A stretch of 38,925 nucleotides of DNA from an uncultured Candidatus Saccharibacteria bacterium (GTDB lineage Bacteria > Patescibacteriota > Minisyncoccia > 2-02-FULL-40-12): the NCBI GenBank assembly GCA_964361105.1, contig CAYHZG010000002.1:1-38925 (forward strand). Direction: 5' to 3'. The position numbers and the translations under genes were made by a program. Shown here piece after piece: positions 23,415 to 34,262 of this stretch. Position 1 is the stretch's first letter; every line of letters starts with the position of its first letter. Under the pieces are notes generated by a model. The model was not told where the DNA came from, did not search any database, and worked only from the letters and a program-made list of their open reading frames with translations.

Positions 23415-24833
23415 ATGGATTTGCATAGAATCTACAAAAACTTTTTCATTGCCTCTGTTTCTCGATTGTTTACGGCCGTGGTGGGCTTGATTATCATTGG
23501 ATTTTTAACCAGGCATCTCGGGCAAATAGGGTATGGCATTTATGAGACCATCCTTTCCTACCTTTTCATTTTCACAATTTTGGCTGATTTTGGTCTCCAC
23601 ATAGTTCATGTCCGAGAAATTTCTCGCCATCCCGAAAAAGAAGAGTTTATTTCCGGAAATATTTTTACCCTTAGATTTATTTCCCTAATTTTAGTAATAA
23701 TTTTAGCGGTTATTGTCGGTTCATTTTTGCCCTATTCAGCAGAAACTAAGACCGGGATCTTGATTGCCACGATTTTTGTCCTTTTTTCATCCTTAAGTCA
23801 AATTTTATCCGGTATTTTTCAAAAGTATCACACTTTTTACTTGGTTTCTTTCTCGGATATATTGACTCGACTGATTCAGTTGGGTCTGGTTTTTTATGCA
23901 ATAAAGGCAGGTTTTGGTCTTTTGGCTTTTGTTTGGATACTTTCCATAACTAGCGGTCTTCAATTTGCAATAGTTTTCTTTTTATCGCGTCGTTTCATTA
24001 AGTTTCCTTTTACTTTTGATTTTTCTTACGCCAGAGAGGTCCTAAAAGTCTCTTTGCCGGTGGCCGCCTCAATCCTATTTACGGCAATTTATATCAGAAC
24101 CGATGCCTTAATGCTTTCTTTAATGAAACCAGCTTCTGATGTTGGAATTTACCGTTTGGCGGCCAAGCTACTGGAAACGATTGTGTTTTTCCCGGCCCTC
24201 CTCGTAGAACTGACCATGCCCTCATTTTCCAGTTTTGCCTTTGAGGCGAGACACGTTTTTAAAATTATTTTCATAAAGATATTTAATATTTTATTTATTT
24301 TGGCAGTACCAGTAGTTGTTTTTCTGACTGTTTTGTCCCATTCGATTGTCTTAATCCTTGGTGGGCAGGAGTTTTTAAGTTCGGCCCTGCCCTTAAAGAT
24401 CCTGGCATTCGTGGTTGGCCTGGTCTTTTTAAATAACCTCGGAGGCAGGGCCTTGATTGCTTTGGAACTTCAAAGGACTGGGATGTGGATTTATATTTCT
24501 GGCGCAGTTTTAAATATTGTGGCTAACTTATTGGTTATTCCCAAATACTCTTATATTGGCGCTTCTTTTACCACTTTAATAACCGAAATTGTGGTCACGA
24601 TTATGATGTTTTTGATTATTTATCAAAAGACCGGTTTTACTGCTGAAATGAAAAGGATCTATAAGCCCATTTTGGCCGGCTTAATCATGGCCTTAGTTAT
24701 TTATAAATTTAAAGAATTTAATATTTTAGTTCCCTTTTTCTTGGGACTAGCGGTCTACTCCTTAGTCCTTTATTTTATTGGCGGTTTCACCAAAAAGAAT
24801 ATAGAAGAAATTCTAAATTTTAAGGGAGTATAA
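23415..24833 (+). CDS. Oligosaccharide/lipid-linked precursor flippase (MOP superfamily, Wzx/MurJ-like)
   Basis: About 472-aa polytopic protein with roughly 12-14 hydrophobic segments and the typical N-terminal 'SRLFTAVVGLIIIGFLTRHLG'. Start set at the second ATGGAT. Confidence 0.8.
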   Translation: MDLHRIYKNFFIASVSRLFTAVVGLIIIGFLTRHLGQIGYGIYETILSYLFIFTILADFGLHIVHVREISRHPEKEEFISGNIFTLRFISLILVIILAVIVGSFLPYSAETKTGILIATIFVLFSSLSQILSGIFQKYHTFYLVSFSDILTRLIQLGLVFYAIKAGFGLLAFVWILSITSGLQFAIVFFLSRRFIKFPFTFDFSYAREVLKVSLPVAASILFTAIYIRTDALMLSLMKPASDVGIYRLAAKLLETIVFFPALLVELTMPSFSSFAFEARHVFKIIFIKIFNILFILAVPVVVFLTVLSHSIVLILGGQEFLSSALPLKILAFVVGLVFLNNLGGRALIALELQRTGMWIYISGAVLNIVANLLVIPKYSYIGASFTTLITEIVVTIMMFLIIYQKTGFTAEMKRIYKPILAGLIMALVIYKFKEFNILVPFFLGLAVYSLVLYFIGGFTKKNIEEILNFKGV

Positions 24834-25610
24834 CTTTTTGTCTTTGGTATTCACGAATATTAAATAATCCTTCAGGGGACTTAGTTTTAGGTTAGTCGTT
24901 TCAAGTCCTAGATTTTTCAGAATGCTCGTTTCCCCAGAATCTTTTTCAGGTATTTTTTGAAATTCTTTTCCGTCGGGAGTTATTGAAAATGCCGCCGAGG
25001 GGTCTCTTATCGGGTATAAAATGATTAGATTTGTTTCTGACCAGGCGAGTTTTAGGTCTTTAATCCGTGTCTTAAAAATGGTTATTGGATCAATCCCGAT
25101 GGGATTGGCTGTTAAAATATTTACCCAGTCACTTTCTTTATCGTAGGTATAGTAAACAACTCTCTGGCCATCAGCCGAGAAAACAATATTCTCCGCATTT
25201 TTCGGCAGTTCCACCCGCCTATTTTCTCTCAGATTAAAATAAAAATTTTTTAAAATACCCTTTTCTGATACGGCCGCTATAAGTTCTTCTCCGTTGGGGC
25301 TAAAGCTCATTTTTAAAACATTGCTAATTCGGGCCAGTTCTCTTTTGTTTTTTGCGTCAAAACCAACCTCATAAATTATTGAATCAGTTTCTTCGTAATA
25401 GAGGACTCTATCAGAACCATCTTTTAAGTTAAGAAAGTCAACCGGTCCCCTACTTATTTTTACTGGTAAATTTTTTAAAGCATCTGATTTGATATTAAGT
25501 TTAGACCGTTGGTCTTTTTCCAGTTTTTGGAAATTTAAGACCAAAAGCGAAACCATGACCCCGCTTAAAACAAAAATCAGAATAATCAGGTTTTTTCTAA
25601 TGTCAGTCAT
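24813..25610 (-). CDS. Membrane-anchored protein with TolB-like (PD40) beta-propeller repeats
   Basis: N-terminal TM segment 'LIILIFVLSGVMVSLLVL', then repeated 'FSPNGEELIA', 'FSADGQRVVYY' and 'ITPDGKEF' motifs. Last gene of the T4SS-like array. Confidence 0.6.
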   Translation of the reverse strand: MTDIRKNLIILIFVLSGVMVSLLVLNFQKLEKDQRSKLNIKSDALKNLPVKISRGPVDFLNLKDGSDRVLYYEETDSIIYEVGFDAKNKRELARISNVLKMSFSPNGEELIAAVSEKGILKNFYFNLRENRRVELPKNAENIVFSADGQRVVYYTYDKESDWVNILTANPIGIDPITIFKTRIKDLKLAWSETNLIILYPIRDPSAAFSITPDGKEFQKIPEKDSGETSILKNLGLETTNLKLSPLKDYLIFVNTKDKKLYSLKI

Positions 25611-33247: not shown

Positions 33248-34262
33248 CAGTAAGTGAGCTAATTAAACTCCACAGTTCTCCATTAGGAGGAGTGAGGTTA
33301 TTTTTCTTGATTTTTTGAATTACGGTAACAAGAAGCGGTTGGACGTTTTGATATACTGATATTAGGTTGTTCATTCCGAGAACTCCTCTGAGAGGATCTT
33401 CGGCTGTTTGACCAAGAGTTTGGTGGCTGATCGCCAGATTTTGGAGATTTGATATGACTTGTTTATGAATATCCAACCAGGATGGCGGAACAGATAAGGC
33501 GTTAAGTTTAGCAATAGCTTTTTTATAGTAGTTAGTTTTTAAATTAAAGTAATTGGTGCTGTTATTAATCAGCTCGGCATTATCAGAATGAAAGTTTATA
33601 AATTTTTCGGTAGCCAGTCGCGGTTCGTTGATTATTTCTCCCCAGATGTCCTGGATTATTAGACCTACATCGTTAAGATATTTTTCCTGCGCTGCCTTCG
33701 AATCGGATGAAAAAACTGTTCCAGCGACAGGAATGTTGTTGGGATCTAGAATCTTGGTCCCGTCAGCTAATATTTCAACGCCGATATCGGCTAATGCTTT
33801 GGTATAAATATTTGGATCAGTATCAGCGCTGAGGTCTCCAGTATAAAAAGCACCAGCCATTAAAGTGCTTATTTTATCTGTGATATTTATCGATTGAAGA
33901 TTGCTGTCTCTCGGCACAAGATCATTTGGCCCTGGTTTTGTGGGGTCATGACCGGAAGCCACCTCTTCGCCGTCTAAAAATCCATCGCCGTCAGTGTCGG
34001 GATTTATCACGTCAGTTCCATAAAGCGGTTCTTCATTGTCGCACAAACCGTCTTTATCAATATCGCTGCAAGGAATTGTATTCTCGGTTCCATTTAGATT
34101 TCCCTGTCTTTCTGACTTCTCACCTCCCTTTAACACCCCGCTTATATTTGCCCCGAGGCCAGTAGTATTTCCAACACTCAAGAAAATACTGGTAGCGATT
34201 AGCCCGGCAAACAAAAACATTACGGCCAGCAAGATTTTTATATTTGTGGGAATTTTGTTCAT
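33237..34262 (-). CDS. Membrane-anchored protein with thrombospondin type-3-like Ca-binding repeats
   Basis: 341 aa with an N-terminal TM segment and 'DIDKDGLCDNEEPLYGTDVINPDTDGDGFLDGEEVASGHDP' (DxDxDG repeats). Confidence 0.6.
   Translation of the reverse strand: MNKIPTNIKILLAVMFLFAGLIATSIFLSVGNTTGLGANISGVLKGGEKSERQGNLNGTENTIPCSDIDKDGLCDNEEPLYGTDVINPDTDGDGFLDGEEVASGHDPTKPGPNDLVPRDSNLQSINITDKISTLMAGAFYTGDLSADTDPNIYTKALADIGVEILADGTKILDPNNIPVAGTVFSSDSKAAQEKYLNDVGLIIQDIWGEIINEPRLATEKFINFHSDNAELINNSTNYFNLKTNYYKKAIAKLNALSVPPSWLDIHKQVISNLQNLAISHQTLGQTAEDPLRGVLGMNNLISVYQNVQPLLVTVIQKIKKNNLTPPNGELWSLISSLTDGF

Follow-up and report, generated by a model that had tools for sequence, protein, structure and literature searches.

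A chromosomal type IV secretion locus near dnaA in a Paceibacteria/Parcubacteria genome, with a motor divided among three genes

Nine tightly packed minus-strand open reading frames (ORFs) at 24813-34262 of contig CAYHZG010000002.1 (assembly GCA_964361105.1) make up a type IV secretion system (T4SS) locus, and this locus is the chromosomal, relaxase-free T4SS already published for Patescibacteria, so that neither the system nor its reading is new. The window analyzed is this one entire contig (38,925 nucleotides, 38.9 kb), to which all searches within the genome were confined. With a probability of about 0.78, we read the locus as a vertically inherited module on the chromosome of a Paceibacteria/Parcubacteria bacterium, with its origin in the MPF-FATA conjugation machinery of monoderms. 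Rather than a new kind of system, it is a Paceibacteria example that is compact and well delimited, each of the nine genes being a member of a family conserved at its position. What is added here are five conserved accessory families without matches, a modelled solenoid tail on the VirB6-like protein, and a sub-clade locus that has no pilin gene.

Previous studies found VirB4 in 2,417 of 3,035 Patescibacteria genomes, as a monophyletic clade nested in MPF-FATA, with TrsD, VirB3, VirB6 and VirB2-like pilins widespread and relaxases present in 103 of the 3,035 genomes (Quiñonero-Coronel et al. 2025, PMC12102498). In Paceibacteria the T4SS locus was placed near dnaA, dnaN, rnpA and ksgA (PMC12102498). 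The T4SS genes of Southlakia epibionticum are essential for its epibiotic growth, and that system is composed like the conjugative systems of Gram-positives, and neither a relaxase nor a coupling protein can be recognised in it (Wang et al. 2023, PMC10633639), while a review in FEMS Microbiol Rev 2025 treats the Patescibacteria system as a new T4SS type and defines the term 'extended VirB6' (PMC12857230). The Patescibacteria T4SS is among the few conserved machines likely to explain the host-dependence of these ultra-small, biosynthetically poor bacteria.

Conserved position, motor and VirB6-like protein

The VirB4 search covered one genome per species and confirmed 566 relatives; the locus comparisons use the best 80 of these 566, and protein families were counted across the 80 loci by iterative hidden Markov model (HMM) searches with matches on the virB4 strand. 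These best 80 relatives, 53-86% identical in VirB4, all come from Patescibacteria/Parcubacteria/Paceibacteria metagenome-assembled genomes (MAGs), which is consistent with the published Patescibacteria VirB4 clade and agrees with the initial annotation, which had supposed a reduced, probably host-dependent organism. The gene order in the relatives is uvrD-rsmA-(lnt)-TSP3 anchor-secreted Cys protein-VirB6-soluble protein-PrgI-TrsD-VirB4-small membrane protein on the module side, followed on the distal side by TolB-like protein-(flippase)-jag-yidC-rnpA-dnaA-dnaN. This order holds down to 54% VirB4 identity; the synteny comparison, like the other tests that the initial annotation had proposed, spoke for its reading. 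Because the same locus recurs in the same housekeeping context across dozens of related species, we infer vertical inheritance and not a mobile element. In the window, dnaA and dnaN lie 3.8 kb and 5.3 kb from the module and rnpA, yidC and rsmA are adjacent to it; the dnaA gene, about 4 kb from the locus, had been missed before.

Rates of divergence differ between the parts of the module. The window has five closest relatives (L001-L005, VirB4 80-86% identical), and in comparison with L001 the motor proteins VirB4, PrgI and TrsD are 86%, 84% and 79% identical, which matches the housekeeping proteins DnaA (86%) and DnaN (79%) and thus indicates purifying constraint on the motor. The other module proteins are less similar to those of L001 (TSP3 anchor 33%, 546-aa protein 34%, VirB6 32%, TolB-like protein 51%, 168-aa protein 51%). 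A slowly changing motor joined to fast-changing surface parts argues against decay of the locus and is the pattern expected of host-contact machinery.

The 600-aa protein (26223-28025, minus strand) is assigned by profile searches as the VirB4 ATPase core, of MPF-FATA / CD1110 type. Its top NCBIfam model was NF045971 conju_CD1110 (E=3.7e-104, 349.5 bits against a cutoff of 325, model positions 179-732 of 752), followed by VirB4_plasma (8e-83), TraC (6e-49) and VirB4_CagE (7e-40), and in Pfam it matched P-loop_TraG (7.6e-25), AAA_10 and CagE_TrbE_VirB, all over their gathering scores. The match to HerA/DUF87 was much weaker (E=6e-6). Walker A GTSGGGKSY and Walker B ILVVDEAWWLL are both present in the translation, in line with the VirB4/TrsE/ConE-type ATPase that had been recognized from these motifs. 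Two genes upstream of virB4 lies prgI (97 aa, 28657-28950, minus strand), which overlaps both its neighbours and encodes a protein with two transmembrane (TM) helices that belongs to PrgI/VirB3, as had been thought from its N-terminus (PF12666, E=5.7e-12, 46.4 bits, cutoff 27). The PrgI family was found in 76 of the 80 loci, and the window protein is 74-84% identical to those of L001-L005.

Between these two genes is a 210-aa ORF (28025-28657, minus strand), left unassigned by the initial annotation, that we now identify from its alignments as TrsD-like, the detached N-terminal domain of VirB4. It matched NF041427 TrsD at E=3.8e-6, under that model's own cutoff of 200 bits, and aligned to positions 103-230 of NF045975 VirB4_plasma (E=1.6e-11) and 6-113 of NF045971. 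The family stands immediately before virB4 in 78 of the 80 loci, and TrsD is the T4SS component reported most abundantly in Patescibacteria (PMC12102498). Indeed, the three proteins are collinear with the fused VirB3-VirB4 model NF045975, with PrgI at 13-102, TrsD at 103-230 and the 600-aa protein at 282-888, and since they align to it in order, prgI-trsD-virB4 represent the successive pieces of one VirB3-VirB4 polypeptide. The three genes, translationally coupled, thus encode a VirB3-VirB4 motor split in three. The fused form is known from the Mycoplasma integrative and conjugative element (ICE) VirB4, the Mbov_0397 family, whose model NF045975 was the second best for the window VirB4 (278.7 bits, cutoff 590); unlike it, the window divides the polypeptide among three genes and has no ICE context.

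The 704-aa protein (29459-31573, minus strand) has about 7-8 TM helices (residues 1-335), an alpha-solenoid C-domain of 270 aa (about 394-665) and a Gly/Pro/Arg-rich tail end. It had been described as a VirB6/TrbL-like polytopic protein, and that description holds: we regard it as VirB6-like by transitive homology and predicted fold rather than by a curated cutoff. The protein itself had no direct Pfam match. Among its 57 homologues, 16 match PF04610 TrbL/VirB6 (best 8.6e-11) and many carry a precomputed PF19590 match. The family profile found R388 TrwI/VirB6 as its top match in the PDB (E=0.17), and the AlphaFold 2 (AF2) model (predicted local distance difference test, pLDDT, 83.5) gave, for its TM domain, R388 TrwI/VirB6 as the top four Foldseek matches in the PDB (7o3v, 8rt9, 8rtd; probability 1.00, target TM-score about 0.5, E about 0.08). 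Both E values (0.08 for the fold, 0.17 for the profile) are marginal, at 16-18% identity, and TrwI differs in having no 270-aa solenoid C-domain.

Since this alpha-solenoid is confidently modelled (pLDDT above 90), the protein corresponds to an 'extended VirB6' in the sense of PMC12857230; Foldseek matches of the tail to HEAT/ARM proteins were weak. The TM-domain family was found in 59 loci; for scale, the sequence upstream of virB4 reaches 7 kb or more in 59 of the 80 loci. The C-domain sequence (window 29459-30600) was found in one other locus of the 80, L005. The solenoid tail is a fast-evolving or lineage-specific addition, because it occurs in that single related locus as against 59 for the TM domain.

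Packing of the nine ORFs, with the spacings and overlaps that had been listed before, was borne out by their coordinates and by reading the junctions. On the coding strand, the 341-aa gene runs 11 nt into the 546-aa gene (33237-33247), and a 33-nt gap (31574-31606) separates the 546-aa and 704-aa genes. The stop of the 168-aa gene overlaps the prgI start as ATGA (28947-28950), TAATG overlaps occur at the 97-aa/210-aa junction (28657) and the 210-aa/600-aa junction (28025), and a single base (26222) lies between the virB4 stop and the ATG of the 200-aa gene.

The locus shares with the published Patescibacteria T4SSs (PMC12102498; S. epibionticum SEML1_0006-0019, PMC10633639) its TrsD, PrgI/VirB3, VirB4 and VirB6, its chromosomal setting without a relaxase or type IV coupling protein (T4CP) at the locus, and its place near dnaA, dnaN, rnpA and ksgA (rsmA), as in Paceibacteria. 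It differs in that most Paceibacteria relatives and Saccharimonadia have a VirB2-like pilin and a VirB1-like hydrolase, of which neither was found at the locus in the window and L001-L005; the 168-aa, 200-aa, 546-aa, TSP3-anchor and TolB-like families are not named in that literature. With the monoderm MPF-FATA systems (pGO1 Trs, pCF10 Prg, pIP501 Tra, Clostridioides difficile CTn2/CD1110) it shares a CD1110-level VirB4, a PrgI-type VirB3, a TrsD-like split N-domain (known from pGO1), a VirB6/PrgH-like protein and the lack of outer-membrane core components. In contrast to these systems, the searches of the window found no relaxase, PcfC/TraJ-type T4CP, PrgK/TraG-type hydrolase, PrgL/TraM-type VirB8-like protein or PrgB-type adhesin, and the locus stands among housekeeping genes, off any mobile element.

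Accessory families and missing components

The remaining five genes are, as far as sequence searches reach, families conserved at the locus without known homologues, the propeller protein having profile similarity to TolB; they are well-defined targets for work on structures and interactions. The conserved module opens with the gene of the TSP3 anchor (341 aa, 33237-34262, minus strand), with one N-terminal TM segment, Ca-binding TSP3 repeats at about 65-110 and a 220-aa C-domain without a recognised fold. The TSP3 repeats noticed earlier are over cutoff (PF18884 TSP3_bac, E=6.5e-8, 32.7 bits, cutoff 25), and in 54 loci a member of the family precedes virB4 on its strand. A VirB8-like assignment was unsupported, as in the PDB the family profile matched only a biofilm surface protein, in its Ca-binding repeats.

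Next to it is the gene of a Cys-rich secreted or anchored protein of no known family (546 aa, 10 Cys, 31607-33247, minus strand), composed of a signal/TM segment, a conserved helical N-domain (about 30-290; motifs FVQDWRxFQ, QYRGE, GGW and PQNN), a Cys-rich region, a poly-Pro linker and a compact alpha/beta C-domain (about 440-546). It has 35 homologues, none annotated, and its N-domain family lies upstream of virB4 in 57 loci. We found no Pfam or NCBIfam match, the PDB search with the family profile was empty, and the AF2 model (mean pLDDT 72, C-domain above 90) gave nothing with E<1 in Foldseek against the PDB; reading the N-domain as a VirB1-like or VirB5-like module was therefore unsupported by either kind of PDB search. 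A single 603-aa ORF at L002:4727-6538 matches both the TSP3 anchor and the N-domain of the 546-aa protein. Because the genes are fused in L002, a functional link is drawn between them, which suggests that the two proteins may act together.

The 168-aa soluble protein (28947-29453, minus strand), also of no known family, has no TM segment and is presumably cytoplasmic; a helical N-domain of about 110 aa is followed by a Pro-rich tail, and the gene always lies between those of VirB6 and PrgI. A large database held 15 close homologues, and the iterative HMM search found the family in 63 of the 80 loci. In the family alignment (A5) the C-terminus is strongly conserved as DPYRE(P)I after a variable Pro-rich linker in most Paceibacteria (for example L006:6939-7802 and L025:7633-8406) and IIDLRNIL in the clade of the window; from its sequence it looks like a short docking motif. 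Pfam, NCBIfam and PDB profile searches with this family gave scattered single-member noise at most.

Directly downstream of virB4 is the gene of the 200-aa Arg-rich membrane protein (25619-26221, minus strand), a member of a positional family that combines a TM1-TM2 hairpin with an Arg-rich insert (about 65 aa) and one more hydrophobic helix, the third. BLAST found it in L005 only, and positional ORFs after virB4 in many loci share the three helices and the motifs of alignment A3, which are A..fD..Q in TM1, fFfWF in TM2 and E.IP..lP.WT in helix 3, with A27, D31 and P152 near-invariant. At E<=1e-3, a phmmer search against 1.84 billion representatives returned 124 relatives, most of which match over their full length and have 200-290 aa, and Pfam, NCBIfam and PDB searches with the protein and its family had no match beyond scattered single-member noise.

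The distal end of the module is formed by the TolB/PD40-like protein (265 aa, 24813-25610, minus strand), which has one TM anchor and a partial TolB/PD40-like beta-propeller. Its single-sequence matches were weak (PD40 E=0.025, TolB E=0.0019), and the family profile (A4) matched TolB propellers in the PDB at E=3.5e-5, at which level the PD40 propeller named in the initial annotation stands. The family was found in 63 of the 80 loci; its members are typically 400-460 aa long, and those in the clade of the window have 265-286 aa and no conserved Cys...Cys segment.

Conjugation genes were sought in 33 window ORFs with Pfam and/or NCBIfam (a 95-aa ORF at 1447-1734, the sole ORF of at least 80 aa outside the main scan that does not overlap a larger gene, was scanned by NCBIfam alone). 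These scans found no relaxase, T4CP (VirD4/TcpA), VirB11 or integrase in the 38.9-kb contig, and this, together with the conserved housekeeping position, agrees with the earlier view that the locus is not a conjugative element. The absence of VirB11 stands, although a PF00437 ATPase does exist at 8718-10205 (plus strand, 495 aa), 15 kb from the locus. Its scores (GspE 438, PilB 409 and VirB11 46 bits) led us to reject it as the missing VirB11, and it is probably the ATPase of type IV pilus assembly (or of a type II secretion system), a second envelope machine typical of Patescibacteria.

In 63 more distant loci (such as L006:13398-14060, L010:12836-13204, L013:14576-15829 and L013:16371-17366), virB4 is followed on its strand, at a distance of 1-4.5 kb, by a gene with the PF18895 T4SS_pilin domain. 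One of the L013 proteins joins the pilin domain with a lysozyme-like SLT_3 domain, as a fusion of VirB2 and VirB1 that has no counterpart in the window. Another 12 more distant loci had no pilin, and in 11 of these the sequence ends less than 4 kb downstream. The pilin HMM behind these counts, which was built from PF18895-positive genes of the loci, found none at the locus in the window or in L001-L005, each with about 10 kb downstream, and a six-frame search of the entire contig returned nothing at E<=10. VirB8-like and VirB1-like proteins had no sequence match among the window proteins, fold models being limited to the 546-aa and 704-aa proteins.

By sequence, then, the sub-clade of the window and L001-L005 has a shortened locus without a pilin or hydrolase gene. 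That this sub-clade runs a pilus-less, hydrolase-less T4SS, a naturally minimal form of the Patescibacteria translocon with a split motor, a solenoid-tailed VirB6 and lineage-specific accessory proteins that would make direct envelope contact without a VirB2 tube, is a tentative proposal that we consider improbable as it stands. We are just as doubtful of its extension, by which the 168-aa protein with its altered C-terminal motif, the 200-aa Arg-rich protein, the 546-aa protein with its extra C-domain and the truncated propeller would replace the pilin, a protein of about 340 aa and the full-length propeller. If the absence of pilin holds genome-wide, a comparison with pilin-bearing relatives would help to separate the role of the pilus from that of the membrane translocon.

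Inheritance, mechanism and alternative explanations

In the mechanism that we propose, VirB3 would anchor TrsD and the VirB4 ATPase at the membrane, where VirB6 would serve as channel or platform and as a further anchor of the motor. The solenoid tail of VirB6, placed in the cytoplasm because of the positive-inside rule, and the 168-aa protein would be cytoplasmic adaptors in the role of a coupling protein, and the TSP3 anchor, the Cys-rich 546-aa protein and the TolB-like propeller could form the wall-spanning, host-contacting part. The machine would carry macromolecules between epibiont and host and, from the literature, would be needed for host-dependent growth. As to direction, the choice lies between import of host nucleic acid or other macromolecules and export of effectors, and we slightly prefer import. 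Uptake or host-directed transport had been suggested in the initial annotation as well; it matches the published view (PMC12102498, PMC10633639, PMC12857230) and hence is not novel.

Several points weigh against reading the locus as such a vertically inherited, working translocon. For five of the nine proteins no fold or family can be assigned, and the envelope architecture is predicted from TM and signal features together with conserved position. Essentiality data come from one Saccharimonadia species, and function has been shown for no Paceibacteria T4SS. With no VirB8-like or VirB1-like protein and no VirB2-like pilin found in the window, the machine may be incomplete or may depend on distal genes, and as VirD4 homologues lie far from virB4 in most genomes (PMC12102498), a distal T4CP is possible. 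Operon structure is not established, because the promoter and terminator scans of 21-38.9 kb gave numbers at chance level (47 vs 41±6 and 21 vs 19±5) and were not used.

Among the alternatives, a dedicated DNA or RNA importer like Helicobacter ComB or archaeal Ced, which would feed a nucleotide-auxotrophic cell with host nucleic acid, is a serious minority possibility. The locus has neither relaxase nor T4CP, a 2025 survey proposed import of DNA or other macromolecules (PMC12102498), and a 2026 preprint on a cultured Minisyncoccota parasite describes RNA feeding and tubular structures that are possibly T4SS pili. The window VirB4 also matches the archaeal DNA-import ATPases CedB (E=4.6e-11) and CedD (E=0.0025), but weakly and far under the conjugative VirB4 families (42 vs 349 bits), and no DNA-binding or nuclease component is recognisable at the locus. 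Further, in S. epibionticum comEC-dependent DNA uptake is dispensable and the T4SS is essential (PMC12102498, PMC12857230), which separates the T4SS from classical competence, although the cargo is not thereby shown. An exporter that injects effector proteins into the host cell, as the T4SSs of pathogens do, is on the unlikely side. Wang et al. suggested that the Saccharibacteria T4SS may export proteins, its coupling and relaxase proteins being unrecognisable (PMC10633639), and the fast evolution of the envelope parts (32-51% identity vs about 85% for the motor) is as expected of host-contact parts; most effector T4SSs, however, require a T4CP (exceptions are Ptl and Brucella VirB; PMC12102498), none is in view, and the window shows no evident candidate effector genes, its neighbours being all housekeeping.

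It would be quite surprising if the locus were a machine for assembling a surface filament or adhesin, with VirB4-driven pilus biogenesis in place of translocation. VirB2-like pilin arrays are essential in S. epibionticum (PMC12102498, PMC10633639, PMC12857230), and the more distant Paceibacteria loci do have their PF18895 gene downstream of virB4, but neither the window nor L001-L005 has an ORF with a pilin domain at the locus, and the six-frame search of the contig was empty. Very improbable, and the one rival that is clearly disfavoured, is a part or remnant of a conjugative element (an ICE or an integrated plasmid) with its relaxase, T4CP and integrase located outside the window. VirB4 scores over the cutoff of CD1110, a family that takes its name from conjugal transfer, and there is a modest rise in G+C over 29-33 kb (0.42-0.45 vs about 0.37-0.40). 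This rise, however, falls where the coding segments are rich in Gly, Pro and Arg, many species have the locus at the same place in the chromosome between rsmA/lnt and yidC-rnpA-dnaA, and relaxases are confined to the 103 Patescibacteria genomes cited above (PMC12102498). No integrase, other mobile-element gene or flanking tRNA was found in the 38.9 kb, the sole tRNA genes being 22 kb away. The inherited chromosomal module is thus preferred.

Neighbouring genes and further observations

Upstream of the module, lnt (34270-35766), rsmA (35730-36557) and a PcrA/UvrD helicase gene (36499-38598) continue the same packed, co-directional array past 34262, with a 7-nt gap followed by overlaps. Because these three genes extend the array, spacing alone does not set the operon boundary; of the limits given in the initial annotation the nine ORFs stand, and the end of the packing at 34262 does not. 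Profile searches bore out that the module neighbours lnt, rsmA, the helicase and a Wzx/MurJ-type flippase are housekeeping genes, and the remainder of the window is likewise housekeeping (dnaA, dnaN, rnpA, yidC, jag, tyrS, PBP1, FemAB, ruvB, ruvC, nusA, trigger factor and RNase Y).

At the other end, the flippase gene (23343-24833, plus strand) and the TolB-like gene (24813-25610, minus strand) are convergent, and their 3' ends overlap by 21 nt (24813-24833), which leaves no space for a terminator between them. A 97-aa ORF at 38603-38896 (minus strand), 4 nt upstream of the helicase gene, has 2-3 hydrophobic helices and a CxxC...CxxC pattern; considered as a divergent pilin, it had no Pfam, NCBIfam or pilin-HMM match.

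A search for DnaA boxes gave 12 matches vs 9.1 expected, with three of them in the spacers flanking dnaA, which is not significant, and the GC skew has no switch within the window. Proximity to the replication origin therefore rests on the dnaA-dnaN context and the literature.

Beside dnaN, at 15139-18365, are genes for a class A penicillin-binding protein (transglycosylase and transpeptidase) and a FemAB-family peptidyl transferase. From these two genes we gather that the organism makes a cross-bridged peptidoglycan for the T4SS to cross, with no wall hydrolase found at the locus.

The 95-aa ORF at 1447-1734 (plus strand) lies directly after a class-V aminotransferase/cysteine desulfurase gene and has a weak, sub-cutoff match (E=1e-4) to the N-terminus of group I intron (GIY-YIG) endonucleases. 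The tRNA genes of the window form a cluster at 2153-2519 (minus strand), with Lys(CTT), Arg(TCT), Gly(TCC) and Pro(TGG), which adjoins an HU/IHF-like gene at 2656-2934.

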